Shown here: positions 2,964 through 63,400 of the stretch, in pieces
Layout: each line of letters starts with the position of its first letter
Position numbering within the stretch: position 1 is the stretch's first letter
Virus record (IMG/VR): IMGVR_UViG_3300036770_005052
Coordinates: 64,001-128,000 of that record
DNA from: a virus
Strand: one strand, 5' to 3'
Length of the DNA: 64,000 nt
The notes under the pieces: model-generated
Databases searched by the model: none
Seen by the model: the letters and a program-made list of their open reading frames with translations, nothing else
What the model was told of the DNA's origin: nothing
Translations under genes and position numbers: made by a program

Positions 2964-3288
2964 CTTTTTTGACTCCGATATTATTCAAGACGAATTGAAA
3001 GAAATCAATAAGTTGCAAGAAGAGATTTACGGTAGTATTCTCACTTTTGGTGGAATGACCCGCGAAACAAAACTGGAACATATTGAAAAACTTGAAATCT
3101 TGTTAGAAAAACAAAGAGTGATGTACACTAGATTATCCCTTTCAGATGATCCAAAGGCGGTCGAAATGAAAGAGAACCTACGCAAATCAGTTGCACTGAT
3201 GGGTTTCCCACCAGAAACTGATATGAATATATTATTCTGTAGTATGAATAAAACAATCGAATCTCTCAAGCAATATATTGACCTCTGA
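2956..3288 (+). CDS. DUF1825-like cyanobacterial/cyanophage protein
   Basis: 'FFDSDIIQDEL', 'LLEKQRVMYTRLSLSDDP.A' pattern recognised from memory. Confidence 0.7.
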   Translation: MSNFFDSDIIQDELKEINKLQEEIYGSILTFGGMTRETKLEHIEKLEILLEKQRVMYTRLSLSDDPKAVEMKENLRKSVALMGFPPETDMNILFCSMNKTIESLKQYIDL

Positions 3289-41685: not shown

Positions 41686-41742
41686 GACACTTTAGAAACC
41701 GTCCACTACAACCCCGTCAAGGGGATTTTTTATTGCTATAAT
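41686..41742 (+). repeat. Dyad-hairpin-TATAAT element, copy 1 (divergent)
   Basis: GACACTT-taga-AACCGTC, CCCC/GGGG hairpin, TATAAT at +51. Confidence 0.75.
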
Positions 41743-41765
41743 ATCAAGACAGTCAACCAAACATC

Positions 41766-42998
41766 ATGTTTCAACTTCGTCCCCACCAACAACGTGGTCT
41801 TGATGCCATGATCAAACATCTTAAAGGTCAATTGGTCATGCCCACGGGTTCTGGTAAGACTCCTACGATGATCTTTGATGCTAAAAATCAATTTGACAAT
41901 CATTACGGAGAAACTCTGATCGTTGTAGTTGCTCCGCGTATTCTACTTTCTGAACAACTTTCTAGTGAGTTTCTTGAGTTTATCGATAATGCTTCCGTGA
42001 TGCATGTTCACACTGGTGAAACCCATCATTATAGTAGTACTAGTCCAAGTGCAATTCGTTCCTGGGTAGATAACACCAGGGGACATAAGATTATTTTTAC
42101 AACTTATAATTCTCTTTGCCGTATTCAAAAGGCAGACATTCATGTGAATACGATTTACTTTGATGAAGCACATAATAGTGTTAAGAAGTCATTCTTTGAG
42201 TCAACTGAATATTTTTCAGGGAATGCAGATCGTTGTTATTTCTTCACTGCTACACCAAAACACAGTGCAACGATTTCTAAACCTGGAATGAATGATTCTA
42301 GGGTTTATGGGCAGGTGATCTGTAATGTTTCTGCACCAGAGTTGGTTGATGCTGGATTTATTCTTCCAGCTAAAGTTTCAGTTCAAAAAATTGATCTGGT
42401 GCGTGATAAAGATTATGGTGCTGAGCGTGACTGTATGACTCTTCTTGACACGATTATCAATGAAGATCATATGGATAAAGTTTTGGTTGCGGCGCCGAAT
42501 ACTAAGGTTTTGATGCGTATGCTTGCGGAAACTGAATTCATGACCGAAATTCAGTCTTATGGCTATGATGTGATGTGGATTACTGCAAAGTACGGTGCAT
42601 TCATCAATAACAAAAAGGTTTCGCGTGAGGTATTCTTCGATACCTTGACTGCATGGGGTAAAGATTCTGATAAAAAATTCATAATTCTTCACTACAGCAT
42701 TCTGTCAGAAGGGATCAACTGCCCTGGGTTGACATCCTGCATCATGATGCGTAATATGGATGTGATCCAGATGTGTCAGACCATTGGTAGAGTGATTCGC
42801 CTGCATCCAAACGATTCCAAGCGCATTCAAGCTGGAGAGATCGCCTCAGGGGATCTTCAGAGCTACTCCAAGGCATTTGGAATGATTCATGTACCAGTTT
42901 ATGCTAATACTGGTATTGCCACCGCTAAGCGCCTTCAGAGCGTCGTTGACACTGTTTTTACACAGGGTCAACCTGCAATTTCTACAATCAAACTCTAA
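41766..42998 (+). CDS. SF2 (ResIII/DEAH-type) helicase
   Basis: Q-motif 'LRPHQ', Walker A 'PTGSGKT', 'DEAH', 'TATP', 'LSEGI', 'QTIGRVIR'. Confidence 0.9.
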   Translation: MFQLRPHQQRGLDAMIKHLKGQLVMPTGSGKTPTMIFDAKNQFDNHYGETLIVVVAPRILLSEQLSSEFLEFIDNASVMHVHTGETHHYSSTSPSAIRSWVDNTRGHKIIFTTYNSLCRIQKADIHVNTIYFDEAHNSVKKSFFESTEYFSGNADRCYFFTATPKHSATISKPGMNDSRVYGQVICNVSAPELVDAGFILPAKVSVQKIDLVRDKDYGAERDCMTLLDTIINEDHMDKVLVAAPNTKVLMRMLAETEFMTEIQSYGYDVMWITAKYGAFINNKKVSREVFFDTLTAWGKDSDKKFIILHYSILSEGINCPGLTSCIMMRNMDVIQMCQTIGRVIRLHPNDSKRIQAGEIASGDLQSYSKAFGMIHVPVYANTGIATAKRLQSVVDTVFTQGQPAISTIKL

Positions 42999-43019
42999 TT
43001 TTTAACAGGAGATCTTATT

Positions 43020-43163
43020 ATGTTTTGTGAAGTTAAGCTTTACGTTGCTGGTAAAATTTTTTACGAAACTGTGATTGCTCGCGACTATGCGGAAGCCAGG
43101 CTTGTTGCAAAAACACGCAATCCAAATGCTACAATTATGGGTGTAACTGCTGTGGTTCGATGA
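43020..43163 (+). CDS. Small hypothetical protein (47 aa, not in the ORF track)
   Basis: MFCEVKLYVAGKIFYETVIARDYAEARLVAKTRNPNATIMGVTAVVR; AGGAG RBS upstream, ATGA overlap downstream. Confidence 0.7.
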   Translation: MFCEVKLYVAGKIFYETVIARDYAEARLVAKTRNPNATIMGVTAVVR

Positions 43164-45550
43164 ACATTCAAAATGAAGGTATTTTAGATCCTGTTCCTGG
43201 TGAACCTAATGGGTTTGTCTCAAAAAATGGAGAATGGGCGGCAATTCCTTGGGGAAAGAAGTTCATTATTGTTTATAAGGGGCAACAAGTTCACACTGCA
43301 AAAAACTACAATTCTGCTAAATCTTACATTCAAAAGTCCACAAAAGGTTCATCGGTTTCAACTTTGGATCAATTTTTGTCCGAGTAAATACACATAATGC
43401 TTTAATTCAATGACACCTTCCTACTACTTTTGGTTTTTTGCCTTTGCTGTAATTGCTTACTTTATTGTGACCGATAATAGTGTTGCAATTGCAGTGAATC
43501 TTATTTCTAAATTAGTAGGAATTTGGTTTGAAAAGAAAAAATGGTGGTTGCTTCACAATCCTCGTAATCCTGTGATAAAATATCTAATGTGGCGTCATGC
43601 TCTGAAACTTGCCAAAGAAATTGAAAAGGAATTTAAACAATGAAACCTAACTTTCGCAAAGTATTGGAGATGGCACTTGAAGAAGGTGTCCGTTATGGTT
43701 ATTCTCGTGCTCATAAACACGTAGAAAATCCAACAGAAGGTGCTATTATTGATAATATTGTGGAGCAAGTTATGAATTCTTTGTATGAGTGGTTTGATTT
43801 TGAGGATAATAATGAACCTAATTAATTTTAAACATCGTAAAACATTAATTAAATATAATCATCGTGAAGATTTTGGACACGATTGGTACGTTCAAATTTT
43901 AAATATCAAACGATGGAGTTTACTCCAAGTATCTGTAAGTTGGAATGATTATCCATCTTGGCCTTATCTGCAGATCAAATCTGGAACTGGTGATGTTCTA
44001 GATTTTTTGTTCTGGGTTTATAAGTTTGGAATTGATGTGACTCTGATTGGTAGAACTTGGAGTTGGGACTATTTGGATGAAATAGATGAAGAAGGAGAAG
44101 ATAATGAAGGAATTTCCCGATAAACTTAATTTGGATATAATGTGGACGGTGGCAACATCGTCCAGTATTGAAACTGGCACAAGACCCCAATACGGGTTTG
44201 CCAAACTGCTGTATGATTACCTCACAGACAACGATCCCTATGGACTCTGTAATGACTTTAAAAGAAAAGAAAGCACTCCTGAAGAAACTTGAAACTGCCT
44301 ACAACACGTGTTTTGATTGTGGGAAGAAGTATGGAGTATATTCTGTAGGATGCTCCTCTGTTTATGAGTCAAAGTGTGGTGTGTGCGATGAAATCAAACC
44401 CATTACTGAAACTAGGGATTTTGCTTACTTTATTACTGGTATTCGCAAACTGAAACTTGAGATCCAAAATGAGAAAAGTAACCGTAAAACCGAAAAGCAA
44501 AAAGGCGAAGAACAGACTCTGCAATGTGATGGGTAATAATCCCATTTGCATTGTAGAGCAAGACAAAGGAGATGGTATGTTGTTTCTCGCATCAGAGAAT
44601 CAAAAATACTTTTTCTGGGTAAACATCAACGACTTTTGGGAATGTGATTGGGAGGTTATTTAATGAGTTTTTCTAAAACTGTTTCTGTTTTTGCTGCTCT
44701 TGCAAGTATCTTTGCTGCTGGTGCTACTGGTTGGAAACTTGCAGATTCACAAAAAGAAGTTCCTTTGAGTCCATTAGACCAAAAGGTTATGGAGTTGGAA
44801 AAGAAACTTGACCAAGCACAACAACCCCAAGTTGTTCCAGAACCTGTAATTCTTCCTACCCCCCAACCTCAACTGCCTCAAACATCTCAAACCCCTCCTC
44901 CTCAACTGCCTCCTCCTGCTCCTGCTCCAGAAAATGTCACTCCTTGATACTCTCAATTACCTTATACAAGACCAAGAAGGAGACCTTCAATGTTATGAAT
45001 GGGATATTAGGGAAGAACTCAATCACGAAGTTAATGATGTTGATTGGTATACTGAACAATACGACCTCACAAAACAAAGAATAGAAGACCTCAAACAAAT
45101 CAAAATCATTATTGAAAATCAATGAAAACCTACAATCTCACCATCACTGAAAAGCAGGCACGAGCACTTGTAGATGCTACTGATTTGCTTCAAAGAGTTC
45201 AATTGGGTCAGTGGAGGGAAATTCAAGATAATCTTCCTCTTCAAAAACCAATTGATTATACAGAATTTCACCAGGATATGAAAATTATTGGAGCAATTCT
45301 ATCCAAACATATGATTGATGGTATTGATGGTGGTGCTTCCTCACTTGGAGTAGGACATCAAGACCTTCCAGAAAGTAATGGTATTCTTTATGACCTTCAT
45401 CGGGTCATTCGCAGGAAACTTTCTGTGGAACGAGCAGTAGAGCAGGGTATTATTGAGAATGAAAATGTTTCCAGAAATGAAATGCCTATCACAGTGGATT
45501 TTGATTTACCTATGAAGTGGGGAACCGAACCACTTGCTAAACTGGAAAGG

Positions 45551-45606
45551 GTCAGTTGAGAAACTGGCACAGGGTATCTCCACAGGTGCCCTTTTTGCCG
45601 TATAAT
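45551..45606 (+). repeat. Dyad-hairpin-TATAAT element, copy 2
   Basis: GTCAGTT-gaga-AACTGGC ACA, agggtatct-ccac-aggtgccct, T-run, TATAAT at +50. Confidence 0.9.
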
Positions 45607-46484
45607 AATTTCAGTTCAAACAAACCAATGGACGACCAACACACTCTCAACGTGCAGATCGCTGACACGCTTGAGAAGATCCAACACATCAATCCTGTGT
45701 TGTATGGTTTCTGGTATAGTAAGTTGTATCCTCCTCATGGCGACACCAAACACTGGACTACTGAAACTCTTGTCCATTTAAACAATCTTTTAAAATGATT
45801 AGAGCAATCCTTAATCAAGTTCCAGTTAAATATGGATCTTATACTGCTGAAGGTAACAAGATCCGCCGAACATTCTCCAACGGTTTCAGTTACATCGTAG
45901 AAGAATGTAACTCACCAGAGGAAGCACAACGCATCGTCAGTGATCTCAACTATCTTACAAGCAAATGACTGAAACCAAAACCTATCCCTACCTCAAATAC
46001 ATTCCTCATTTTGTTGCAATTCGGTTGATTGTGCTTGGTCCCTTTGCGATTGCACAAGCAACGGCAGAGTTCATCTCCAACTCTCTGGATAAATTTACAT
46101 ACAAACTTGATAAACTTCTTCCATCACCTTATATTGAAAAGCAAGTAGAATGGGATCAGTTGCCCAAACAAAATCAAGAAGCGATTGAGTATCTTGCAAA
46201 AAAGCGTGATACTACCAAAGAACGAATTCTTATTCAAACTGTGAAACCATGACTAAACAACTACCACAAAAAACACACGCAGAGACACTAATTAAGGTCA
46301 CAGAAGAATACACTCTACGACCCAAAACAGGTGATCGTGCTCGTGTATGTATTGCTACTCTTCAATATCTACTGGACAACTTTGCTTACAATGTTGAGTA
46401 TGATGCTGATGGTTGGGGTGGTTCTGTTAAATGTGTAGAAACTGAAGACATTGAACATCTTATTTACCAACTGCAAAAACTGAA

Positions 46485-46661
46485 ATGAACTACCTCTGCC
46501 TACTTGATGGTGTTGTAGAATACGCCAGCACAGATCTCTACCAATTCAATCATTATCGTATGATGTATTACGAAGACCACAAAGATGCTGATGTAGAGTA
46601 TCTTGTGCTAACTGATGAAGAGTATAATGCTATGTTCCCTGTAGAGGAGGATGAAGAATGA
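46485..46661 (+). CDS. Small acidic protein, paralogue of 47521-47700 (not in the ORF track)
   Basis: MNYLCLLDGVVEYASTDLYQFNHYRMMYYEDHKDADVEYLVLTDEEYNAMFPVEEDEE. Confidence 0.8.
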   Translation: MNYLCLLDGVVEYASTDLYQFNHYRMMYYEDHKDADVEYLVLTDEEYNAMFPVEEDEE

Positions 46662-46933
46662 GCGGCGGACACTTCAACGATTGCGGATACGAATACTATA
46701 ATGTCTCACAGTTTGCTGATGAACTTGAAGCAGAAGTTCGTAACAACTTTGAGAAGGATGAGTATGGTTATGCCTATGAGTATCCCCCAGAAGTTTGTGA
46801 GTATCTTTTAGAACAGGTGCCCAAAATGCGTAAGATGGCAGAGATTATGAGGGCGGTGGATTACTTATACAGCGGCGACCACGGTAGCGATAGTTTTATG
46901 GAAAGGGTGAAAGAAGTAGAAGAGAAATATAAG

Positions 46934-46989
46934 GACACTTGAAGAACTGGCACAGGGCATCTCCACAGGTGCCCTTTTTGCCTTATAAT
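46934..46989 (+). repeat. Dyad-hairpin-TATAAT element, copy 3
   Basis: GACACTT-gaag-AACTGGC ACA, agggcatct-ccac-aggtgccct, T-run, TATAAT at +50. Confidence 0.95.
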
Positions 46990-47011
46990 ACTCTTATAAG
47001 CAATCAAACCG

Positions 47012-47278
47012 ATGGACTACGAAACTGAAATCATAGATGGACGCAAAGCAGTTGTCCGTCATTTCTTCAAATCACACGAAATTCAAGTTGGTTCTCGTTG
47101 GGCACGGGCAGATGGTTCTAAAGGTTTTGTGACCGTTGAAGGTCTCAATTCTTATGGGAGCACAGACCCTTGGTATGAAGTAGTTTATTCTTGGGAAGAA
47201 AATGGTGTGAAGAAAATCTGGCAAAAAGAAACTTTTGCCTTTCAATGTCGTTATTGTTTGATTATTGAGGACACTTGA
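47012..47278 (+). CDS. Hypothetical protein, single-gene cassette between copies 3 and 4
   Basis: Starts after the element leader, stop codon inside the next element. Confidence 0.8.
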   Translation: MDYETEIIDGRKAVVRHFFKSHEIQVGSRWARADGSKGFVTVEGLNSYGSTDPWYEVVYSWEENGVKKIWQKETFAFQCRYCLIIEDT

Positions 47279-47325
47279 AGAACTGGCACAGGGCATCTCC
47301 ACAGGTGCTCTTTTTGGTTTATAAT
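47270..47325 (+). repeat. Dyad-hairpin-TATAAT element, copy 4
   Basis: About 40 nt identical to copy 3; TATAAT at +50. Confidence 0.95.
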
Positions 47326-47520
47326 ACTCTCATACACACAGACACCTGATGACTTTTCTATCTGGACTTGAAACTTACTTTCTGTTTTTTATTGGAGTTT
47401 ATGCGGTAAATCAGGTTTGGAATTTCTTTACAAAAGAACGAACCCAAATTCAAATCTTCACCGAAGCACTTCTTTGGGCAGGAGTTTGGATTGTTTTTGA
47501 TAAAATCGTTGGTATTTGAA

Positions 47521-47700
47521 ATGTCTCTCAATTATTTGTGCCTTGTTGATGGTGTCGTAGAATACGGCAGTACAGACCTCAACCAATTCAATCATTATCG
47601 TATGTTGTATGCCGAAGACCACCAAGATGCTGATGTAGAGTATCTTGTGCTGACTGATGAAGCATACAACGAAATGTTCCCTTGTGAGGATGAAGAATGA
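47521..47700 (+). CDS. Small acidic protein, paralogue of 46485-46661
   Basis: MSLNYLCLVDGVVEYGSTDLNQFNHYRM...; start moved to ATG 47521. Confidence 0.8.
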   Translation: MSLNYLCLVDGVVEYGSTDLNQFNHYRMLYAEDHQDADVEYLVLTDEAYNEMFPCEDEE

Positions 47701-49595
47701 CTAACGAAGAACTCCCAGTATCAAACGAATTCATCACATTTGTGAGAATTCGACTTGACCACGAACAAAAACAACAATTCCGTCGTTATCTAAATCTCCA
47801 TTATCTTGGTGATGTGAATTGTAATGAGTATGATGAGAATATGAAAATTGTTCCCAAATACCCAGAGAAAGAAACACAAGAGTTCAAAGATGCTATGTGG
47901 AGAGCAGATATGTCAGTAGATTATCAAGTCAAAGTAGTTTATGATGTAAATGGTCAATGTAAATTGGAGTTGCTATGATTGACCTCAAAAGATATAAAAT
48001 CACTATTACTGTCACCACAAGAGATAGTGCTTTTGATACAAAAATTGGAGACCCTATTTGGCATCTCCTTGATATTGAAAATGGAGAACGACTTGATAGT
48101 GTTTCTTTACCTGTTGAATTACCTTTGATTAATTATGAATAAACTCTTTCAATACGATAAAAAAGTTTGGGAAAATGATGAAACTGACCGCACTTGGCAG
48201 TTCGGTGTCATCAACAATCGTTCATTACTTTGGGTGAATTATGAAAATCCCAGTAGTTTAGTTCATAGTAATGGTGGATTTCACATCATGCTCTCATTTC
48301 TTACTTCTTCTTCTCTTTTTGGAGTAGATTTTCAAGTTGGTAAGATTGGTTTGAGTTTTAACTTTTTCACAGAATACTTTGATGGGTGGGATGACTAATG
48401 TTTAACTTCAAAGAGGACTGGGAAGAACCAACTCGTAAGGCAATTCAAAAAATGCTGACTTATAAGGGATACATTCCATCCAAAGACCTCAACGAGTATC
48501 AGTATCAAACCTATCTTCAAGTAGCATCACCATACGAACTTGAAAAGGACATTATCACCGAAAAAACGATGCTTAAAGTAAATGATGAAGAATTATGATT
48601 AAAATCTATTGTGTGGTTGATAATGTTGATTTGGGTTATCACGTTCTGTGTGCTTCCACTTCCAAGGATAAAGCACAAGTAGCATTAGATATAAAGATTA
48701 AACAAAAATATGATTATGCTATTAAACAACAAGTGCTTCGTGGATTTGATTACGAGAAAGCAAAAGAAAAAGTAGATGAATGCTTCTGGACTCCTTATGA
48801 AATTATTGAGATTGAGGTGGAAGAATGAATAAGGACGCATACTACGACTGGATTGATGAAAACGACACATATCCAGAACATTCTCATAAGTGGATAGTGG
48901 GACTTTATAACAAATATGAAGGTGTAGAGGGACTTCATAGATACTTTGGAGTTTTTGAAACCAAAGAAGAAGCAAAAGTATTCGCAGCAGATTATAAAGA
49001 CAAATATACAAAACCAGGATTTATTTCAAGTATAAGAGTGTTCCCTTTGTGTGAGGTATTATGACCAACCCTGATTACCGAATTGAAGAATGCTTTGATT
49101 TTGATTGTATGACTACTTACTATGTTATTCAAAGATATAATGTTGTTCAAGCAGAGTATGTTCTTCACTCAACAAAAAGATTTGGACAACTTATGCAAGC
49201 AAAAGAGGCAATTAGGATGTTAAGGAGATACAAAGAACCAATTTATCATTATATGGAGTGAGAAATGACAAAACTCTACAATCGTCCTATGAATTTCTTT
49301 GAGAAACTTTCTGCTGGGTATTATTGGTTTGGTGAATGTTGGAGTGAGTGGTGCTATACTATGAGAAGTGAAGACGGAGAGTTCTTTAACTATCTTCAAA
49401 GTGATTATGTCCGTTATGAACAGGATATGTATTATGACTGATTGGTTGTCTGGTTTTAGAGAAGAAATCAAACAAATTAGAGAAGACAACAAACAAATTA
49501 GAAAGGAAGTTGAAAGATTGCGAAAAGAAAATGAAGCACTTCGTTCCATTACTCCTAAAAAATTATTAGAGATTGTGGAAAAATCTGTAAAGGAG

Positions 49596-49651
49596 GACAC
49601 TTTCTAAACTGGCACAAGACCTCACCACAGACCCTGTGGATGCCCTATAAT
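49596..49651 (+). repeat. Dyad-hairpin-TATAAT element, copy 5
   Basis: GACACTT-tcta-AACTGGC ACA, ccacag-acc-ctgtgg, TATAAT at +50. Confidence 0.9.
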
Positions 49652-49961
49652 ACTCTCATACACAAAGGAACTCCAAATGCTTGATGCTTTTACTGATTAT
49701 CCTATTCCATCTTATGGTGATGTTGCGGGAGAAAAAGCACCTATTCGTAGAGCAAAAATCTTGACCTACGATAGAAATAAGTATTGTGATGTGCTTGTCT
49801 ATCAAGTAGATAAAGATGGAGATTTGAGAGGAACTGTTGTTAATTTTAAGCAGTTTTATCTTTATAAAAATGAAGCACGACTTGATGATGGCATTCCATT
49901 CACTGATGAAGAACTGAAAACTCTTCCTTGGACTAAAATAAGTTCTCCTCATTCCATTTGA

Positions 49962-49991
49962 TATAATGACCTCATACACAAAGGACTGATG
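49962..49991 (+). repeat. Half element (TATAAT plus leader only)
   Basis: TGA-TATAATgacctcatacacaaaggactgATG. Confidence 0.75.
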
Positions 49992-52399
49992 ACTAACACC
50001 GCATACCAAATCTGGGAAACATTCAAAGCAGAACTTACACAACCAGCAACAGATGATATGAAAGAAGCATTAGCATCTTCTATTCGTGTGATTTCTTCTC
50101 TCATTTATAGAGATGGAGTGCTTGCAGATGAACCTTGGCATTTTTATATTGCTCAAGAACTAAATGAATATGCTGATGAGGTGGAGGCACTATGACTGAA
50201 AGAGCACAACAGATTATGGATGTTTTCTATAAGGACGAAGATTTGGATGGTGATTTTATTCCAGATAAAATTGTTGTTGCGAATGTTCTTCGTAAATTGA
50301 ATAGTATTTTTGCTGAAGAAGGATATGGTGGTGATGAATTTTCTTGGCGTGTTTTTAGTGAAATTATTGATATAATTGATGAATTGGAGGCACTCTAATG
50401 ATTTTAGATGAAGAAATCCGTGAACTTGCTAACACCTATGGGTTTGATAGACACATATGTAAAACAACACACGACATTTACTGGGAATGTGATGAAAAAG
50501 ACTTCTTGAAGTTTGCCCGAGAACTTTATGATGAGGGTTATACTAAAGGTTTTAAAGTAGGGCACGATGCTGGTTGGGAATTAAATGAAGAAGTATCACG
50601 CAGAGGATTATGACTGAAAGAGCAAAAAAGATTATGAAAGCATACGAAGCAGAGGATACATACAACTTTCCAAATGATGGAGTTGCTGCTGCTCTCCGTA
50701 AGGTTGTAGAAGAACTCAAGTATATCGGTATTACTGAAAAGAACATCCTTGAACTTGCTGATGAATTGGAGGCACTATGATTACTCTTGATACACTAAAA
50801 GATAGTGTTTATTCTCTTCATCTCACAATAGAGCAGGATGAACAAGTTATGGATATTATAGAAACTGCTTATCGTCTTGGATGTGAAAATGGGTATGATG
50901 AAGCAGGAAGAATATATGCTCCAATTATTGATAAACTTATGACTTCTGTGGAAGAACTGAAATGAAAAACTTTGATGAACTTGATTGGATAGTTTTGTCT
51001 GTATTCTTTATTATAATCGTTGCTGCTACTTCTATCACTTATAGTGAGCAACAACAACGAGCACTCTTTCAACAAACATACAATAAGAACTTGGAGTGTC
51101 GTCAAGCACTCAAAAATAATACAAAAAGTTTTGTTAATGAGATTTGTGGTCCTATTCCTGTGATTGGAGATTTTGTGAAATGAACGATGAAAGTGTGATT
51201 GGAACAGTTTGTCTTGGTATTCTCGCAACTATTGGTGTTGCATTTCTTTTAGGCACTCGGTTTGGTTTTGATGATGGTGTTGTAGAAGGGAAGAATGAAG
51301 GTATTGTGTATTGTGTAGAGAAACCCAAAGAGTGTAAGATTGCTTATGATTACCTGAAACTTCAAGAGAAACAGAAATGAACCAAATACTACAAGGTTGG
51401 AAAATGGTTCTCAAAGATTATCGGCACTGGAAAATGATACTCAAATATCCTTATGATGCTTTTGATTGTGCTGTTTTCTTTGGTAATCTTGCTCAACCAC
51501 CAAACTCACTTGATGATTATATCAAAGAATTGAAAGAACTTGACCCAGATTGGGAAAAAAATTATTATGATAATCTCTGGGTTCTTTATGATGATATTGG
51601 GGAACGAATGAACGAAACAGATAAGTTGCTTGAAGAAGTTGATGAGGTATTGAAAAAATGACTAAATGCACCTGTTCTTACATCCAAATAGGATACAAAA
51701 CCTCCAACACCAAAAACCTCAATCCAGATTGCCCTCTTCACGGAACTGATAGTGTGTGGTATAATAGTCCAGAACAAGTCAAAAAAAGAGATGAAAGGTC
51801 TCAACGACTTCGGGAACTTTATGATGCTGCTCGCAAAGCAAGGGAGAATATGAAAAATGACTAAATCCTACATTTCGTGCTACAATATGCCCTATAAAGA
51901 CCTTCAAAACTTTGAGGTGCCCGATGCAGTTTATATCTACATTCGTCAGTTGGAAAACGAAATCATCAATCGTAATGGTGCCGTTCAACGACTTTATGAT
52001 TTTAGGTTTGGTGAGAAACAGAAATGATTGAAAACCTCTACGAACTACAAAGTAATGTAGAATGCTGGTGCCAAAAGTGTTGTGAGGAACAGACAGGGCA
52101 TCAACATATGTTTAGAATGGTTCTGTGCCCTACTTGTGGTAATAAACGATGCCCCAAAGCAACCGATCATAGGTTAGAATGTAGTGGTAGTAATGAACCA
52201 GGACAGAAAGGGAGTGTGTATCAATGATTGAAATGAGAATTGTAGAACACGAACTGGGAATGAAACCAGATATTCAGTATCGTTTTGTGCTTTCTACTGC
52301 TGATGCTTCTGTTCCTTTTATGAATACATCTATGAACTTGATTATGCAAAATAGTTTTGTTTGGAGTGAATGGAAAACTGCCGAATGGGTAAAAGCAGA

Positions 52400-52455
52400 G
52401 ACACTTGAAGAACTGGCACAGTAGGCATCCAGAGTGGTCTGTGATGCCTTATAAT
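52400..52455 (+). repeat. Dyad-hairpin-TATAAT element, copy 6
   Basis: GACACTT-gaag-AACTGGC ACA, aggcatc...gatgcct hairpin, TATAAT at +50. Confidence 0.9.
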
Positions 52456-53861
52456 AATAGGACAAACAAAGGAACTCCAATGATTACTGATGAACAAATC
52501 CTTAAAATTGCCCGAGAACATCTTTATATTCTTACTTCTGTGAATGAATGGTGTGGTGAGGAGGGAGACCTCTTAAACTTTGCCCGAGCAATCTACGAAA
52601 TCGGTAATGACAATGGTTGGCAAAGTCGTGAAGAAGCAGAATACTTCAACTCATCTTATCCAACTGGACTTGTAGGAGACCCACAATGAAACTTGTAGCA
52701 ATTTTTCATCATCACTCTAACAATCTTCCTATTGTGATGGAAGTATCTTCAACTGAAAAGTTTCGGGATTGTTGTGACACACTTCCAACTGACTGGGCAC
52801 ACCTGATGAATAAGGAAACTGGAGAAATTACATACACTTATAGAAACAACACTCGTACTGTTTCTCAACCAACTTTTACAATCTCACAAGAACAATCTAT
52901 CAACCGAGTAGAACGATGATTACTGACGAACAAATCCTCAAGCTTGCTAAAACCTGTGGATTTGATGATTTCTCACCCGAAGATAGAGTGTGTTGGGAAT
53001 GTTGGGAAGAACAACTGATTGAGTTTGCCCAACAAATTCGTAAAGAAACAATCAACGAAATTCTTTCTGCCCTCAAAAATGTTCCTAATCCAGAAGCAAA
53101 CCGAACAGCAATCAATCGTATTGAAATGGAGTTAAATTGATGATTGAAGTAAAGAAATCTTATGTTTTGGAATTGACTGAAACACAGGCAAGGGAACTCT
53201 ACAAACTTCTACTATCCGCAAAACATACTGAACACATAACTCACGATAATGAACTGGTGCTTGTCTATCACGAACTCAAAAAACTCTTTGATACGGGGAT
53301 ACGATGAATAAGTATCGTATCAAAAAAGAAACTTATGGTGATACTACAAGGTATTATCCACAAGAGAAATTTTTGTGGTGGTGGTATAATGTCTTTGCTT
53401 TTGATGTTTATTTTGATGGTGGATATGATACTCTGGAAAAAGCACAGAAAAACTTGTGTATCTACTGTAGGGGAACTATGGTAGAATATATTAACTTTAA
53501 CCCTAATGAGGATTGTAAATGACTGCTGATTACAAACAACTTGCTCAAGAACTTTACAGGGTACTCAACAGATTTAGATGTTGGTCCCCAGAAATAGATG
53601 ATGTTATCTCAAAATACGAATACGCAACAACCAGAGGAACTGGACGAACCACTGCTCTCTATATGAAAGCAATCACAGAAGCACTTGAAAATCCTGGTAA
53701 GAGTGTGGAGTTTATTGACCATTATCCTCATACTTTTCTTAGTGCTAAAAGTCACGGAAGCAATCTGGCAAATATTATTATTAAACTGGGATATGATATT
53801 GCGGTTACTGTTCCTTCTGGAGATGGAAGAGTGTTTCTTTACAATAAGTTTGGACAATAAG

Positions 53862-53918
53862 GACACTTACTAAATTGGCACAAGGGCACTTGAAATCAGG
53901 TGCCTTTTGTCGCATAAT
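53862..53918 (+). repeat. Dyad-hairpin-TATAAT element, copy 7
   Basis: GACACTT-acta-AATTGGC ACA, ggcacttga-aa-tcaggtgcc, CATAAT at +51. Confidence 0.9.
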
Positions 53919-53941
53919 ACTTCTATACACACAGAAGACTG

Positions 53942-54235
53942 ATGACTGCTGAACGCATTACAATCAAAGAAAGCAAAGATTTTTGTTACTATGGTGAGTT
54001 TTATGGTTCAATAGACAAAATCATTTCCACACTCCAAAGGTGCAAAGAACAGGGTTGGGAAGGTATTGATTATGATTATGATTATGGGAATGGAGGAAAA
54101 GACTACTATGTCTACAAAACCCGACTTGAAAATGATGAAGAGTATGAAAAGAGAGTGAAACAAGAAGAGCAACAAAAAGAAAATCGTCGTAAACAATATG
54201 AACAACTCAAAAAGGAGTTTGGTAAGGACACTTGA
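53942..54235 (+). CDS. Hypothetical protein, single-gene cassette between copies 7 and 8
   Basis: Starts after the element leader, stop codon inside the next element. Confidence 0.8.
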   Translation: MTAERITIKESKDFCYYGEFYGSIDKIISTLQRCKEQGWEGIDYDYDYGNGGKDYYVYKTRLENDEEYEKRVKQEEQQKENRRKQYEQLKKEFGKDT

Positions 54236-54283
54236 AGAACCGTCACAAGGGCACTTGAAATCAGGTGCCTTTTGTTGTATAAT
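54227..54283 (+). repeat. Dyad-hairpin-TATAAT element, copy 8
   Basis: GACACTT-gaag-AACCGTC ACA, same hairpin as copy 7, TATAAT at +51. Confidence 0.9.
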
Positions 54284-57200
54284 GACTTCATACGCACAGA
54301 AACCTAATGAAAGTATTTTCTTTATACTACAACGATGAGTTCGTAGCATCTTTTCCCACAAAAGAAAGTGCTATTTTCTATGGTAAGCAATTCTATGAGG
54401 ATGGATGGTCTTGTAATATTGTAGAAGAGTATTTGAGTAAATCTCCACTACTTTATAGCACTCCTTATACTCCTCTCACAAATCCAAATCCTATTCCTTA
54501 TACAATTCCTCCTATAGTTTCAAAACCACCTGCGAAGTATCCTGACACTTATCCTCATATCTATTGTGATGGAACCAAATGAAATGTAAATACTGGGATT
54601 GTGGGTTCTGTTATGCACCAGTAGATGTAGAAACCAACGCAACTCAAGGTGGATGTTTTGAACCAGAATATTGCCCTTATAAGAAATCACAAATGACTAA
54701 TCAACAACTCCCTGATATTATTGAAATCGGTGGTGTAAAATACCAACGAGTAGAAGAACCAAAACCACAGACACTCTTTGAGATTATCCGTGAGTGGTGT
54801 GATGATGATAATCAACCAACTTGCGAAGAACTTGTGAGTAGGATTGAGACGGGATGGTTGCCTAATGAAGGTTGCCACGAACTAAACAGTAATGATTATT
54901 GTGAGGGTTGGAATGATTGCATAGAACATCTAAAAGAGAACCTCAAATGACTGAAATACCAGAACCAAAAAAGTGGAGTGAGACTTACGATAAAGAACTC
55001 ACACTTGAAGAACTATTTCAACTGATTGGTGATGTTGAGTGGAACTTAAAGGATTATATTTGGGAACTTAAACAAGAAGTTGAAGAACTAAAAAAATTAG
55101 CACACTTTCACGACGATATGTATACTGAAAAAGGTGAATTGATTAGAAAATGACTGACGAACAAGGAAACTTGGAATGGGAAGAACTACGACTTCAAATA
55201 GAACAAAAAGCAAAAGAAATTGGAGACATTGTGAACATTCTTGAACGAAGGAGACAAAAACTTAAAGAAATCAACGACACAAACAAAGCAGTAGAGAACA
55301 AACGGAAAGAAAATCTTATTAGTGACCTACAATCCAAAAACTGGTATGTGAATATGAGGGAATTTATGTATCCAAAGGTGGAAGTGGTTGATGATGAAAT
55401 TGTTACGATTAATGGTGTAAAGTATCAACGAGTAGAAGAACCAAAACCACAGACACTTTTTCAGCATTTGAATTCTTTTGGTATTGTTGGTGCTGAAGGC
55501 ATCTGTAATATTGTAAGAGGTTGGTTGATTGACAACACAGTAATTGAAACTGAAGATGCTGAAAAGGTTACATTTACTATTCATAAAGAACAATTACAAA
55601 CACCAAAATGACTAACTTACTCAAATACATCAAATCTCTAAAAACAATTTATGTTCCTTCACTTTGGTTTGGTGTTCTGTTAGTTGCTTTGTTATTTCCA
55701 CAGTATGTTTTGTGGTTTATGTTTGGAACTGCTTGGGGAGTTTCGTGGATGTTTGCTTACAATTGGTTTCACGACAAATGATTGACTACACCACAATAGA
55801 ACTGGAACTTATCTTTGAGGAAGTCGCAAAACTTCCAAAAACCACAGACACTTCCTATGTGGTTCCAGATGTGTTAGAATTGGTGAGACAACGGATTTTT
55901 GATTATGAACTTCAATGATTTGCCCAATAATTCTTGGGAAAAAGTAATGGTTCATCTTGTGGAACATATTGGTGGGGATGGTGGGTCTCTTGTAAAATGG
56001 AGTGGAGAAATCCCAGACCCAGTAGAAACAGCAACTGCAATTTTGGGAATGGTTCAATATTATGACCCAGATTATCGGGACTTACCAGAAGGTGCTCTTG
56101 CTAAAGGTTTTAGAGCATTTTATAGATTGGGAGAATATGAAGAATGACTTACGAAGATTTTTTGAATATTCCAGGTGGTGTTCTCAAAGATTTGCAAACT
56201 ATTCTTATCTTGAAAGACAAGTATCATATGGATATTACCACTGAAGAAAGAAAAATCTGCGAACATATAAACAGGTTTGCTGACGAACGAAGAAAATCTG
56301 CCGAACTCTGGAAACAAAAAGAACAACTTGAAAACCTTTTTAGAAAATGAAATCCTTCAACATCAACTATACCGTCAAAGTAAAACTCACAAAGTTCGGT
56401 AAAGAACTTCATAAGAAACTCTGGGAAGATTTTTGGAACTCTCACGGTAAATTGGATAAGTTTCCTTATACTCCACCAAAGGAAGATGAAAATGGATACT
56501 GTGAGTTTGTAATGTGGGACTTGATGAATAAGTTTGGTTCTTATTGTGTATTGGGATGCGAACAACCTTTTGATACTATTATTCTGATTGATGAGGAGTA
56601 TTTGAAAGATGATTGAGTTTCTTATGATTGTTATGCTTGTTTATATGGGAGGTTCTATGTTTTTGGGACTACTTGAATACCTTATGGATAGAAAGAAATG
56701 ACTGAACCAAAAATAAAGAATATTCTTATACCCTACAAAAATAAAACGGTTTATGCTCCTTGTATTAAAACAGAATATGGTTGGTGTATTAATATGACTG
56801 ATGAGGTTATGAAAATTTTGGAAACAAATGAAATAAGAATTGACGGTGTTATTACTGTGGAGGATTTGAGAGATGACTAAACTTGAACTTATTCAAAGAT
56901 TACAGAACTCCCCTTTTACTAGATGGTGGTGGAAAATGTGGATACATAACACAACCAGAAGAATTATAATGGTTCCTTTCTATAAAAATCCAGGAAAACA
57001 ATATGAACTTTGTAAATTTAGAGAATAATGACTGAAAAAAAGATTGTACATTTTGGGAAAGAATACATAATTCCACAAAATGTTATTGATGATTTGATGA
57101 AGTATCACGGTCTTGATGCCGTAGAAGCAGTGGAACAAATAGTAGAATTGAATGATGAGGTAAAAAATGACTGACAGATTAAATCACAAACTTGATGTAA

Positions 57201-58553
57201 GTAAAATTCAAACTCTTGAAGATGTGCGAAATGTTTTTGAGTGTATGAACTTGGTTGCTAATTCGAGTGAAACTAACGAACAGTATGAACTTCTCAAAGA
57301 GTATTTTACTATTCCTTATGTTCCAGAACCTTTGAAGTTTGATAAGGCAGATTTTGACTATCAAAATTATATTGAGGATTATAAATGACTGAAAAAATAG
57401 GATACAAACTCAATCCAAAGAAACTCAAAAAAGCACCTCAATACATTACTCCTTATTTGTTTCTTGGTGCTTTTTATTACACCGAAGATTATGAGTATTT
57501 TGATGTAATCAAACCTTATCTTGATATTCCAGAACCACCCAAGTCATTAGAAGAAATCTCACAAGAATGTGAAGAGAAGTTTGATAAACATATTGAGAGT
57601 ATCAAGCATAAGTTTGCTGAACTCAAATGTCATCAAGAGTATCTGTACAATCAAAAGTTCAATAGGATTATTGAGAACTTTGAATACGCTAAGGAACACG
57701 GACAATTCCCAGTCAGATTTACAGTAGGTAATTTAGATTGTTCTAACCTTATTGCGAATAATACTGTATCTTGGAGCACAGAGTTTAGAATTGGTACAGA
57801 TGAAGTAGGATACTGGGACATCAAACCAAACATCAAAGTGTATCTGAAAAAGAAACCAAACCGTATTGTGAGATACTTTACCAAACTGCTTCTTGATTTT
57901 ACTTGGAAAGACAAATGAAACTAACTGCTGCTGATATGATGGTGATTGTGGATACTCTCAATCATAGTTTGCGAATTGGAAATTATGGTGGAGGATTTAC
58001 TACAGAAACCCGAGAACAAACTATGAATGCTGTGATTGATATTATGGCAAATATGGGTGCAGAAGTTGTCTGTGGTGATGTAGAACCTATTGTAGTGAGT
58101 GGAGATGTTGAAGAATGACTAATCCTCTTATAGACAAATATAATGAAATCTACGGAAAGAAAGAGATTAAAAGTCCAATAACTTTATCAGACCCAAATAT
58201 TTCACTTACAACAATACCATCAGTAGCAACATCAACCACAGGTATTACAAAGGCATCAAATTTTCTAACTCACGATATTCACGATACGGAGAAAACTTTT
58301 CTACAAGTCGCAGATAAAATCAAACAAGGAAAAGCAAAGGTAGGAAGTGTGAGTATAGAACACGATGTTATGCTTATGGGTGGAACAAAAGTATTTTTTG
58401 AGGTTTATGTTAACAATTGAAGAACTCCAAAAATACTTGGATGATAATAAAATCACCCTTGAAGAGTATATGAGAGCAAATATGATTACTGATGAAGACA
58501 GGAAATATTTTGATAAGATATGGATGGATGCGATTTATAAGAACTTGGGTGAG

Positions 58554-58609
58554 GACACTTTCTAAACTGGCACAGGGGATGCTCTGGGTGCCTCTGTGGG
58601 TGGTATGAT
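58554..58609 (+). repeat. Dyad-hairpin-TATAAT element, copy 9
   Basis: GACACTT-tcta-AACTGGC, cacagggg...cctctgtg hairpin, TATGAT at +50. Confidence 0.9.
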
Positions 58610-58821
58610 ACTCTCATACACACAAAGGACTGATGACTTCAAAAACCATATCAATTGGTGATTGGAAAATTAAAACTTTGACTGAAACAGAAGTCAAAGA
58701 TATTATTGCTATGCTTCGTCAGGCACAACAAGACAATCTTGATGATGAGCATTCTTATGAGTACTTCAAAAAATTAGCATCAAAAATTCACCGAATGGGA
58801 CTTGCTTTTCAATCTCTTTGA

Positions 58822-58851
58822 TATAATACTCTCATAAGAAACAAACCGATG
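58822..58851 (+). repeat. Half element (TATAAT plus leader only)
   Basis: TGA-TATAATactctcataagaaacaaaccgATG; leader resembles that of copy 3. Confidence 0.75.
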
Positions 58852-59402
58852 AATTACGAAACTGACATCATCATTCATCAGTATTCATCTGATGGAGATT
58901 TTTATTACAAACTCAAAGTCACAGATGTAATGAATATGGATTATCTGTATATGGGTAATGCTCCAACACTTGAAGGTGTTATGGAATGTATCCAACTTCA
59001 CCTCAAACAACACCAGAACTGAAATGACTGACCAAGAAAAACTTTACAAACTCTGTATTCTTGAGTTGCTGATTGCGATTGATGAGGATGTAGTGGATTG
59101 GAGGAACTATCCTAAACTCTGGGAAGCAGTTAAACTTGCCGACAGAACTCTTGACATTTGGGCAGGAGACAATCTCAAACAAATGAAAGCAGAACTTGAA
59201 GAGGTGTAAAAACTAAATGAAATACAACATCAAAAAACAACAAATCATTCAAAATGAAGAAGAAGGTTGGAGTTTTCAATTTTGGGAAGAGGTAGATTTT
59301 GTAAAGATTGTTTATTTTGAACAACTACTTTCAAAAACAACAGAATTTCGTATTCCTAAAGATTGTGTAGAATATTTTATTGATGCTTTGGAGAACCTGA
59401 AT

Positions 59403-59458
59403 GACACTTGAAGAACTGGCACAGGGGGTCTCCACAAGACCCCTTTTTGCCTTATAAT
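59403..59458 (+). repeat. Dyad-hairpin-TATAAT element, copy 10
   Basis: GACACTT-gaag-AACTGGC ACA, ggggtct-ccaca-agacccc, T-run, TATAAT at +50. Confidence 0.95.
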
Positions 59459-60419
59459 ACTCTCATAGACAAAGGAACTCCAAATGGCAATTGACACCAG
59501 CACCTGCATCAACATTCTTCCCGATGAGGAATGGTATTACACAGTTGAAGACTCAAATATTGTCACCAGTATGGATGGTTGCACCATTTCCTATTGGCAA
59601 GATGGAAAACGGCATACTCACATTACGATGGAAAAAGAAGAAGCACTCGCAGTAGCAGACGCAATTTACAAACTCTTTAAGAACTGAAATGATTGACCTT
59701 TCACAACTGACCAAAGAACAACTCAACGAACTTGAACTTCAAATCCAAAAGCATAAGGAACAACAGAAGGTAAAGGATGCTTTGGAAAATCTAAAAGGTT
59801 ATAAAGTAACTTTTTATATGAGGTTTGACCCTGAAAAGCATAAAGATAATGATATGCTTACAGATGATGGAGAACTTGACCCAAACATTTTTGCTGATTA
59901 TCTGTGTGATAATCTTGTTACAGACCTGATTAGAAATTTTGAATTGTATGGTTATGAAGATGTGAGTTATCCTATTGTGGAGATAGCAACAGAAGAAGAA
60001 ATTAAACACCAATTTTGAGGAAACTGAAATGAAACCCTTTGATTACTATTCCAAATCACAAACTGCTTATCCCAACAAAAAGGATTACATCAAGTATTAT
60101 GTTTATGATAAGGGTGAAGTTCTTTGGTCTGGGCATGACTATGAAAAAACTAAACCTGAATTAGAAAAAGAGTATCCTGATGCTGTGATTCAGGTAGTTC
60201 TTGATAAAGAAGGATACAAAGCACACCAACTTCAATATGCAGATGAAAAGCATAAACTTCACGAGGAGTTTGTGAATGACCTTTTTGAGAACTTTAATGT
60301 GACTGATAATCCTAAAAGGCAAAAGGCATTTGACCTTGCTTGGGAAAAGGGACACTCTAATGGTCTTGAAGAAGTTTATAATGAGTTTTATGACCTTGTA
60401 GAACTTATTAAAGATTGAG

Positions 60420-60475
60420 GACACTTCTCAAACTGGCACAGTGGGTGCTTCACGGCATCCCAGATGCCTTATAAT
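60420..60475 (+). repeat. Dyad-hairpin-TATAAT element, copy 11
   Basis: GACACTT-ctca-AACTGGC ACA, tgggtgc...gcatccca hairpin, TATAAT at +50. Confidence 0.9.
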
Positions 60476-63400
60476 ACTCTCATACACACAGAGGACTAAT
60501 GAAACGCAACAACTTTGATCTTATGGATGCTTGGATTGTTTTGGTTGCTGGTGGTGCTGTTTTGGTTATTACTGTTGCTCCCATCATAGGAGTTATGAAA
60601 GTCATTACAACTCAACAAGCACTCAACGAACAGTGTGGGACTCACTACAACTTCTTCCAAGTTACTACTGCGGGTGATAATCTTTCCCGTCTTTGCCAAA
60701 TCAAAAATCAAACGGTGACTATCAAATGACTTATCAAATCACAAAAGAAATTCGTATTCTTCACGAACAAGATGATTGGGATTATGTTTTTACAACTGAT
60801 GAGTATGGAACTGTGAGTGTTATTAGTTCCGAAGGTTTAGAGGCAATGACTGGTAAAACTACAACCATTTACATTCCCAAAGATTGTATTCAACACTTTA
60901 TTGATGCTCTGGAGCAACTGAAATGACTGAACAAGAAGAACTTCTCAAAGAATATCAAAAAGAAGTTGAGAAATGTTGGGAACTTGCTCAAAAACTTGAT
61001 ACTCTAAATCCTGAACTTGTTGGTGCCTTTACTGGAACACCAAGTCAAAGGATTGAACGACAACTTTATGCTCTTGGTGTTTTGGAATGACTGACCTCGC
61101 AAAATCCGTAAAGATTAACCCTTATACTGGAAAGATTTCAATTATGTGTGATGACCGAGTTGCCTTTACTATTAGTATTCTTGACGGTCATACTATTGAG
61201 GTTCGTGGTGGTGATGTAGTAATGGATAAAGGAGTTGCTTATGATGAAAAACTTCAAATCACTCCTTGTTATTCTAATGTGGTTCAAGTAAGCAAAATGA
61301 GGTATGAGTGAAATGACTGCCTTTAATTACAAAGGATACGGACGCATCTACACTAATCCAGAGAACATTCAAGATGTAGAAAACATTATTCAAGAACTTG
61401 ATGAGTTTGAGTGGGGTTATTATACAGGAGGACTTGTAGCATCTTGGGATATGTATCCAAATGTTGAGTATGTTGGTAAGTTTGAACTGAATGAAGAAAA
61501 GTTCAAACAAATCTGTAAGGAACGAAACATTCCTGTTTTTGTCTTTAATGCTTATGATAATGATTATCCTCGTGGTTATGTCAAAACCTTGACTGTAGAA
61601 GAAATCAAAACACTTTCTTATGGAGAACTGAAATGGAAATAACTATTCAAGCAACTGAACTTCTTCAACTCTTCACCAAAGCAGAAAAACTTGACTTAAG
61701 TGTTAAGGTTCATGAGGACAAAGATGGGGATTATGTAATTCGCATCTATGAAATGTTCCGTCCAGAAAAGTTTGAAGAAAAAGTAGTCATCGATCAGAAT
61801 GGTGGAAGCAGTTGGAACAAAGGTTCGTATAGTTTTGATGCTATGATGGATGTTCTTGATGGGATGTTGGAAGAAAAACTATTGGAGGAAATCAAAGCAC
61901 GAAAACGACAAGAACTGATTGCTCGTTTGACTGATGAAGAAAAAGAACTTCTGGGGGTAAAATGAAACTCAACACTATTGTTTTACTGAATGCTTATCAA
62001 ACAATCATTCTTTGTTGGGGAATAGCATATATTCTTGGTATTTTGGAATGAAACTCTTAATCAAATTTCTATTTCAAATACCACTACTTTACTTTTTAGT
62101 CTTTGGAGTAAATTCAATTGTCGGTGATAACTTTTGGATTTCTTCTCTGGTTATAACTGCTGTCTTATTCCTTTATACTACTGGTGATTACCTTGATGGA
62201 GAAAAAGATGACTGAACAACCTAAACTGTGTAAAGATTGTCTCCACTATAAGAAAAGTTGGTTAGGTCATCTTTTTGGGAGCAGCTCACTTGATAGATGC
62301 TACAATCCAATCATAACTAATGATTTAATTACTGGAGATATAAAGAGTAAATCTTGTGAAAATGCCAGAGATTTTGAGATGTATTGTGGTAAAGATGGCA
62401 AGCATTTTGAGCAACTATGGGAGGATAGGAAATGACTGAACTTGAACTTGGGCAAATGTTGTTTGGAAATCCCACAGAGAAATATAGTGTTCCTCGTGAG
62501 AAATGGATGGGTGGTCCATTCCAAATCCTGATTGATGCGATTACAGAAAAGACAGGAGAAAAAGATTATGGATACACTCCACATTTCTCCAATGACTTCT
62601 TTATCATCCGTCCTTATTATTGGGGTGATGAAGAGGATGAAATGAATAAACCTAACTTTGAAATCCCAAGTGAAAACTTCCGTTTGACTTGGTATAAGTA
62701 TCCTTTTAGGAGTTCTTATGCGAGTGAGAAACTTACTCCAAAGAGGTGGAATGACCTGATTCAAAAATGTATTAAGAGTTTGGAAGAATGACTGACGAAC
62801 AAATCCTAAAACTTGCTAAAACCTGTGGGTTTGATGAATTTCCAGATAATATTACATCAACCAAAAAACAACTCTTGAAATTTTCTGCATTAATCTACAC
62901 AGAAGGTTTCAAAGTAGGATACGATGAAGGTTGGGAAAGTAGTAATGTAAGCACCAAAATGAATACTTGGAGTTCTGATGATGACTAACAAACTAAAATT
63001 TACACAAGTATCACGAGTAATCTGCCCGAAGACTGGTGTTCATTATCTTGATGCGATTGATGAGAATGGAATACACTGGGTTGCTCAACAAGAAATTGGT
63101 GTGGAACGGTGGATTACATACAAAGAAGTTTGGAAGAAAGACCCACAACAACCATTAGACCTATGAAACATCCAGCAAACGATTGGGACTTTGATGATAC
63201 AATTGAAGAAGCATTTCAGGAATGGTTTAATGACCTTAATGGTGGTTTTGCACTTCGTAGTGAATATTTTTTCGGTGATGCGGAAATCGGGGATGTGAAT
63301 ACTCGTAAGGATTTGATGTATAAGTGGTTGCACTCTGCGTTCGTTATGGGGTATAATATGGGAAAAATGGAAGGACTTGAAGTAGGACTGACAAACAATG

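Follow-up and report, generated by a model that had tools for sequence, protein, structure and literature searches.

The DNA analysed here is a 64-kb window (bases 64001-128000) of the 144-kb IMG/VR record IMGVR_UViG_3300036770_005052, which comes from a freshwater T4-like cyanophage, is ~62% complete, and has the Synechococcus phages DSL-LC02 and DSL-LC03 (Kyanoviridae) as its closest isolates. Structural genes occupy the left of the window; from 41.7 kb there is a DNA helicase gene and then dozens of plus-strand small open reading frames (ORFs), among which a unit of ~80 bp is repeated. Each unit consists, in order, of an imperfect dyad, a GC hairpin, a -10 box, the tetramer CATA at the predicted transcription start, and an ATG. 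Throughout, window coordinates refer to the 64-kb stretch and genome coordinates to the full record, offsets (+n) are counted from the dyad start, and upstream distances (-n) are counted from the transcription start, which in the phage is predicted.

An initial annotation, made from the sequence without database searches, had listed eleven copies of this unit, and all 11 starts carry the parts it described. The dyad pattern GACACTT-N4-AAMYKKC was exact in eight copies, with one mismatch in the copy at 53862 and two in that at 45551; the N4 core was not as freely variable as had been thought, reading GAAG in 5/11 copies. In relatives the palindrome is longer, (t)GTGACAsTT-N4-AAsTGkCAC(a), and the dyad arms can be written GTGACAGTT and AACTGKCAC. 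With up to two mismatches allowed, the window held 18 dyad matches against 7.1 expected, a count reached in 0/100 shuffles, and the true copies were on the plus strand only. A search for a dyad with a -10-like box 47–54 bp downstream recovered the 11 copies plus a degenerate twelfth at 44161, and the same scan found further cassettes past the window end at genome positions 129222, 130147, and 140037. Lone good dyads also occurred at genome positions 4873 and 6782 (minus strand, 57–59 kb to the left of the window) and 142565 (14.6 kb to its right); lacking both a -10 at +50 and a downstream small-gene array, these were rejected as cassettes.

The -10 box began at +50 in seven copies and at +51 in four, with CATAAT at 53862 and TATGAT at 58554, all as first reported, and the ATG offset is also fixed (+77 to +81). 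The leader spans 15–19 nt from the predicted start to the ATG and includes an AAGGA-type ribosome site. The stem-loop lies at offsets +20 to +46, between the dyad and the -10 and around the -35 position. It had been described as an inverted repeat that differs between copies while always pairing, and we found eight distinct stems with a mean folding energy of -12 kcal/mol and a mean z of -2.8 against shuffles; T-runs were present in copies 1-4, 7, 8, and 10, as annotated (copies are numbered from left to right, with full coordinates given below).

The suggestion that this hairpin occupies the place of a -35 box stood only in part: there is indeed no TTGACA, but the hairpin does not substitute for a -35, since the hairpin loop of six copies holds a weak one. 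This hexamer is TCCACA, 16 bp before the -10, in the copies at 45551, 46934, 47270, and 59403 (hexamers at 45579, 46962, 47298, and 59431, respectively) and TTGAAA, 17 bp before the -10, in copies 7 and 8 (hexamers at 53890 and 54255). The loop hexamers match the consensus at 4/6 positions in these six copies, and a consensus scanner found no -35 in the remaining ones. As the hexamers lie in the loops of terminator-like hairpins, the terminator stem wraps the weak -35. The ordinary promoters at 3278, 28832, and 29245, which had been offered for comparison, are real TTGACA/TTGACC-17-TATAAT promoters with no dyad upstream. We also noted that TGCC is conserved at offsets +45 to +49 (window 45551-60500), giving TGCC-N-TATAAT, 2 nt upstream of the TG of a canonical extended -10; it can pair with the GGCA of the right dyad arm and may be either a promoter contact or part of a stem.

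An exact-pattern scan of IMG/VR returned at least 120 loci. Among the matches listed, a -10-like box was found at +49 to +52 for 102/155 dyads, and in the 95 unique copies the offset was +50 in 64, +51 in 24, +49 in four, and +52 in three, with conservation of both the TGCC before the -10 and the CATA at the predicted start. A -35 with at least 4/6 matches was present in 37/95 of these relatives versus 10/95 at a control spacing. Other phage contigs had the arrangement dyad, 7 nt, TTGACA, 17 nt, and -10, with the spacing unchanged and no hairpin; since the dyad there precedes true TTGACA promoters that have no hairpin, it belongs to the promoter and not to the hairpin. The cassette design is also carried by DSL-LC02 and DSL-LC03, and Syn9 has five sites (44777, 47207, 48561, 51003, and 52999) in its small-gene/helicase region. 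P-SSM2 has 17 sites and S-PM2 has 15, versus one and none, respectively, for a reversed-pattern control, while genome scans of the T7-like cyanophages P-SSP7 and Syn5 and of Microcystis phage Ma-LMM01 found no dyads. The S-PM2 dyad at 11348-11369 immediately precedes a published "potential stem loop" at 11369-11391 (PMC4503421). This dyad and two others in S-PM2 (AJ630128; 8574-8595 and 9854-9875) read GACACTT-GAAG-AACTGGCAC, with arms and core identical to those of the freshwater phage, and they sit in the "ORFanage" region, which fits the published idea of marine-freshwater exchange there.

Comparison with the rest of the region supported a terminator role for the hairpin, as the four highest-ranking terminator-like sites in these 20 kb were the hairpins of copies 8, 3, 10, and 4. 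The corresponding spacers of relatives (91 unique, again among the matches listed) had a mean folding energy of -10.2 kcal/mol and a mean z of -2.1; 70/91 fold at -5 kcal/mol or better, and only 25 have a TTTT run. The covariation check of the stem that the initial annotation had proposed gave no formal demonstration of covariation: the stems differ in sequence and in register, so that RNAalifold found no consensus structure for 30 T-run copies, and the 61.5% of pairs counted for one named helix was equalled by slid controls. Pairing is thus supported copy by copy, not by covariation. The idea that the hairpin might act as a cruciform received no support, and an Rfam scan of the whole window found no family. 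The contigs of the one RNA sequencing run (X20, share 0.06) reveal neither transcript starts or ends nor strand. Taken as a whole, we consider it highly probable that the unit is a combined promoter and terminator cassette.

A counterpart of the dyad exists in cyanobacterial genomes. When the full palindrome was scanned against 185,579 genomes, one per prokaryote species, matches were found in many cyanobacteria and also in Acidobacteriota. At the cyanobacterial loci the dyad is followed by ~31 nt, a TATTCT-type -10, and then GUGUGUGAGGAG, and the transcript downstream was the Cyano-1/Yfr2 small RNA (sRNA; RF01701, Rfam) in 8/8 loci tested. Of 39 unique Yfr2 promoters sampled across the phylum, 18 had the phage-type dyad, its first base being 64–71 nt before GTGAGG (66–68 nt in 16/18), and the dyad-to-(-10) distance of Yfr2 promoters equals that of the phage within 1 bp. 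The same geometry therefore holds in ~100 phage contigs (among those listed) and in host Yfr2 promoters, lending comparative support to the earlier reading of the unit as a promoter.

Yfr2 promoters of Prochlorococcus and marine Synechococcus are known to carry the element CGRE1, a 21-22-nt palindrome (CAAC-N13/14-GTTG) located 55–57 nt upstream of the start, with an exception in MIT9313 at -20, and considered restricted to marine picocyanobacteria (PMC6191309); it reportedly has no other occurrence in the MED4 genome (PMC6778093). PMM1637, a PlmA homologue of the GntR family, was shown to bind CGRE1 in pull-down and gel-shift assays (the latter with R50A as control), and it raises yfr2/yfr4 promoter output in an E. 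coli reporter (PMC6191309). In the form in which we searched for it, (C)AACTGKCAC-N1-2-GTGMCAGTT(G), CGRE1 was present in 8/38 Cyanobiaceae Yfr2 promoters with its proximal end at -55 to -58, or at -21/-22 in two genomes, positions that fit the published text including the MIT9313 exception. We saw that the halves of CGRE1 are the phage dyad arms with their order swapped. The proximal half, GTGMCAGTT, is positioned like the phage left arm, e.g., 43 nt from the -10 in both one host promoter and the phage; the phage left arm ends at +6/7 and the predicted start is at +62/63, which matches the distance of the CGRE1 proximal end, taking the phage start as predicted. The two centres are ~12 bp apart, roughly one helical turn, with that of the phage dyad closer to the start. 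A loose phage-type match peaked at -66 to -61 in 16/38 Cyanobiaceae promoters and was near zero elsewhere, and high-GC Cyanobium-like genomes had forms near that of window copy 1, e.g., GACCACT-N4-AAACCGTC. Yfr2 genes of Nostocales and other non-marine cyanobacteria have the everted palindrome GTGcCAGTT-N4-AAgTGTCAC 7–8 nt upstream of the -35, and this looks like a phylum-wide form of CGRE1; we found no description of the non-marine everted element in the literature searched.

The initial annotation had proposed that the dyad is read by an unknown dimeric protein at a site centred near -53. Comparative evidence agrees with a dimeric factor centred at -53/-54, and a candidate for it can now be named, since the arms are half-sites of CGRE1, to which PMM1637/PlmA binds (PMC6191309). 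Exactly one GntR gene was present per picocyanobacterial genome searched, and its recognition segment (MQTGLHRNTISKVYRQLE ... AGSGIYVR) does not differ between Prochlorococcus-like, Cyanobium-like, and Anabaena genomes, as would fit a single half-site being recognised throughout the phylum. The ~62% complete phage record itself has no gene for a GntR domain. The everted form is found at Yfr2 outside the marine picocyanobacteria, where PlmA is present too, making binding of PlmA to this form plausible. Judged from these sequence comparisons, we think it likely that the promoters depend on an activator acting through the dyad, and we give about an even chance to host PlmA being that activator. 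Our preferred reading, put forward with guarded confidence, is that the units are PeSL-like (promoter-stem-loop) terminator-promoter cassettes that depend on an activator, probably host PlmA. What is new here is that the phage dyad arms are CGRE1 half-sites; the cassette itself is a member of the cyanophage early-promoter class. In the literature searched we found no paper linking PlmA, CGRE1, or PMM1637 to a cyanophage.

Several observations weigh against this reading. The phage dyad is everted (left-type 9-mer, N4, right-type) relative to CGRE1 (right-type, N1-2, left-type). The two arrangements would not be expected to be recognised by one simple symmetric dimer, and binding of PMM1637 was shown for the CGRE1 arrangement only (PMC6191309). 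The CGRE1 form used here is itself a reconstruction from the text of that paper and from genomes, and we saw no convincing CGRE1-type site in the phage record, only matches with up to three mismatches whose arms are not palindromic. The likely host family has the phage-type arrangement mostly in degenerate form (1/38 at a strict threshold); clean sites of this type come from Nostocales and other groups that are not hosts. Because Acidobacteriota, too, commonly have the palindrome, the 9-mer is not confined to organisms with PlmA. As to the hairpin, 4/11 copies have no T-run, which makes termination doubtful at those four, and column-wise covariation of the stem could not be demonstrated. Similarity breakpoints, finally, were weakly enriched in the cassettes (8.3% vs 5.6% expected).

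The design resembles several known systems, each with differences. Doron et al. 2016 (ISME J 10:1437) reportedly described a novel early-gene regulatory element in T4-like cyanophages (Syn9 and P-TIM40), and the cassette is probably this element, judging from the Syn9 sequence. The two have in common a T4-like cyanophage as bearer, small-gene clusters, and a host-like -10 preceded by a non-canonical element. We found no binding factor published for the cyanophage early element in the literature searched, and no description of the dyad motif in the other cyanophage literature searched. The initial annotation had also drawn an analogy to PeSLs, which holds for the shared composite of terminator hairpin, early promoter, ribosome site, and ATG: the window has 12 copies between small ORFs at 41.7–60.5 kb with parts at fixed offsets, and PeSLs likewise are repeated between small ORFs of a hyperplastic region (PMC2839356, PMC4122927). 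PeSLs are also associated with mosaic boundaries, a trait that the cassettes may share. However, PeSLs have a good -35/-10 pair 17 bp apart, whereas the phage cassette has a near-consensus -10 and a poor -35; the stem-loop is just upstream of the promoter in PeSLs and inside it, around the weak -35, here; and PeSLs have no activator site where the phage cassettes have a conserved upstream palindrome. CGRE1 shares with the cassette the 9-mers, a proximal half ~55–57 nt before the start, and a poor -35, and it activates transcription, as the phage dyad would; it differs as a converging palindrome that drives an sRNA, while the phage site is everted with a 4-nt gap. The non-marine Yfr2/Cyano-1 promoters have the order phage-type dyad, 7–8 nt, -35, 17 nt, and -10, but with a fair -35 (cTTGcc), no hairpin, and an sRNA as product.

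Should the cassettes be activator-dependent promoters, the dyad need not be read by PlmA; a virion or first-made phage protein, another host regulator, or RNA polymerase alpha on an UP-like element might serve. The everted arrangement, unlike the only PlmA site shown bound, speaks for such a factor, as does the incompleteness of the phage record, in whose missing part (it is ~62% complete) a phage-encoded factor could lie. Furthermore, the palindrome is abundant in Acidobacteriota and Sphingomonadales, which by the published statement that PlmA is exclusive to cyanobacteria lack it, so other proteins can read such sites. Yet phage-free cyanobacteria across the phylum have the same dyad at the same -10 distance before Yfr2, pointing to a conserved host factor, and PlmA is the only factor shown to act at yfr2 promoters; the phage record has no GntR or other obvious candidate, and the dyad is not A/T-rich as an UP element would be. 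We think a factor other than PlmA unlikely. We regard as far less probable still, indeed as very doubtful, that dyad and hairpin act in RNA, as a 3' processing or stability signal of the upstream message, with TATAAT an independent ordinary promoter. The dyad overlaps or adjoins the stop codon of the upstream ORF and so would be transcribed, and the GGCA of its right arm can pair with the TGCC before the -10, yet the dyad arms pair poorly as RNA, and in hosts and other phage contigs the dyad is upstream of promoters that have neither a hairpin nor an upstream same-strand gene. The spacing, too, is fixed relative to the -10, whereas the upstream stop codon varies from before the dyad to inside it.

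The units might also be primarily recombination modules, i.e., mobile cassettes of PeSL type in which dyad and hairpin mediate gene shuffling or mini-circles and transcription is secondary. PeSLs of T4-type phages (RB49/phi1, T4/PST, and KVP40/nt-1) are tied to indels and replacements (PMC4122927). Among related contigs, none kept both flanks of copies 3-11, the upstream flank only being kept in 16, the downstream only in 23, and the cassette alone in 116. Contigs from three other studies join different copies, e.g., 58596 to 47320 and 60440 to 54265, and 11 of the 24 listed loose contig ends fall in cassettes. Against this, the sides of the contig joins are short (24–41 nt) and inside the repeated element, such that they may be alignment artefacts, loose ends are to be expected in any conserved repeat, and the breakpoint enrichment is weak. 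Gene-precise indels also occur with no cassette, at overlapping stop/start codons, e.g., 50776 to 50962, and the fixed dyad, -10, and ATG spacing together with the host promoter counterpart are explained by transcription instead. We thus find recombination improbable as the primary role, while the data are consistent with PeSL-like shuffling at the cassettes.

Under the preferred reading of activator-dependent terminator-promoter cassettes, the GC hairpin, followed by a U-run in 7/11 copies, would end or stabilise the upstream transcript, and transcription would restart from the sigma-70-type -10, with the A of CATA, 7 nt on, as its start. The cassettes would in this way split the small-gene array into short transcription units. 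With its -35 weak or missing and located in the hairpin loop, such a promoter would be expected to require an activator, whose site would be the palindrome (GTG)ACAsTT-N4-AAsTGkCAC at about -64 to -43, with its centre near -54. Incoming phage DNA may recruit pre-existing host PlmA to fire early-type genes, for which PlmA is suited because it is present before infection, as early genes require. The cassettes might also double as mosaic joints in the fashion of PeSLs, since they are conserved and their flanks are not.

The Yfr2 match names PlmA as a candidate for driving early-gene transcription in T4-like cyanophages, which are not known to have MotA or AsiA. According to published work, PlmA is bound by PII-PipX, and Yfr2 increases under high light and nitrogen starvation; from this we suggest a possible coupling of the phage early genes to the nutrient and light status of the host. 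We entertain, tentatively and with somewhat more doubt than belief, that T4-like cyanophages start infection via a borrowed PlmA switch, with the everted dyad being the general, phylum-wide PlmA operator of Yfr2 and the marine CGRE1 a local rearrangement. If so, early promoters would fire only when the PII-PipX-PlmA nitrogen/carbon and light circuit permits, and early transcription would read the physiological state of the cell, with a bearing on infection success across nutrients and light and across lakes and oceans. The PlmA-Yfr2 link would also be extended from marine picocyanobacteria to the whole phylum, and the cassette would offer a compact, portable terminator-promoter design with the -35 in the terminator loop. 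As purified PlmA, the dead mutant R50A, and a reporter already exist, the PlmA question is directly testable.

The individual copies, all on the plus strand, are as follows. Copy 1 (41686-41768) precedes the 410-aa DNA helicase gene and has the dyad GACACTT-TAGA-AACCGTC, a CCCC/GGGG hairpin with T6, TATAAT at +51, and the ATG at 41766. The degenerate extra copy (44161-44242) has the left arm TCCAGTA and the right arm AACTGGCAC, a hairpin, TATGAT at +51, and the ATG at 44240. In copy 2 (45551-45630; ATG 45628) the dyad with two mismatches is followed by a terminator-like hairpin with T5, whose loop gives TCCACA-16-TATAAT (+50). Copy 3 (46934-47014) has an exact dyad at 46934-46953, a hairpin at 46954-46975 with a T-run and TCCACA in its loop, TATAAT at 46984, a predicted start near 46996, and the ATG at 47012; the hairpin of copy 4 (47270-47351; ATG 47349) is of the same family, with a T-run and TCCACA-16-TATAAT. 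Copies 5 (49596-49679; ATG 49677) and 6 (52400-52482; ATG 52480) both have an exact dyad, no T-run, and TATAAT at +50, the hairpin being CCACAG/CTGTGG in copy 5, where GATGCC comes before the TATAAT, and GGCATCCAGA/TCTGTGATGCC in copy 6. The 11-pair hairpin of copy 7 (53862-53944; ATG 53942), which has one dyad mismatch, T4, and TTGAAA-17-CATAAT (+51) from its loop, recurs in copy 8 (54227-54309; ATG 54307) with the right arm AACCGTC and TTGAAA-17-TATAAT (11/12 consensus). The last three copies have exact dyads: copy 9 (58554-58635; ATG 58633) has the hairpin CACAGGGG/CCTCTGTG, no T-run, and TATGAT at +50; copy 10 (59403-59486; ATG 59484) has GGGGGTCT/AGACCCCT with T5 and TCCACA-16-TATAAT; and copy 11 (60420-60501; ATG 60499) has two short hairpins, no T-run, and GATGCC followed by TATAAT (+50).

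Other known sites were tried for the dyad and its surroundings and rejected. The arm contains TGGCAC, as in a sigma-54 site, yet there is no GC element at the right spacing; cyanobacteria are not known to have RpoN. The spacing does not fit NtcA (GTA-N8-TAC) or CRP (TGTGA-N6-TCACA) sites, and the segment after the -10, ACTCTCATACACAC, which has some likeness to the Yfr1 motif, is mostly upstream of the predicted start.

Freshwater metagenome contigs precisely missing single small ORFs were found for window positions 49060-49265, 50173-50377, and 50776-50962; these gene-sized indels join at overlapping stop/start codons, with no cassette involved. Outside the cyanobacteria, intergenic stretches of Acidobacteriota (Terracidiphilus, Pyrinomonadaceae, and Bryobacterales) frequently contain GTGACAsTT-N4-AAsTGTCAC, and Sphingomonadales genomes have it as back-to-back tandem copies. 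Tandem arrays were also seen in IMG/VR contigs (L055 at 1110-2862, also L049, L100, and L113), in which a 58-bp unit (the full 24-bp palindrome, 7 nt, TTGACA, 17 nt, and a weak -10) is repeated up to 5.7 times. PlmA was originally named for plasmid maintenance, and these arrays might serve as stacked promoters, as iterons, or as a decoy for whatever factor binds the dyad.

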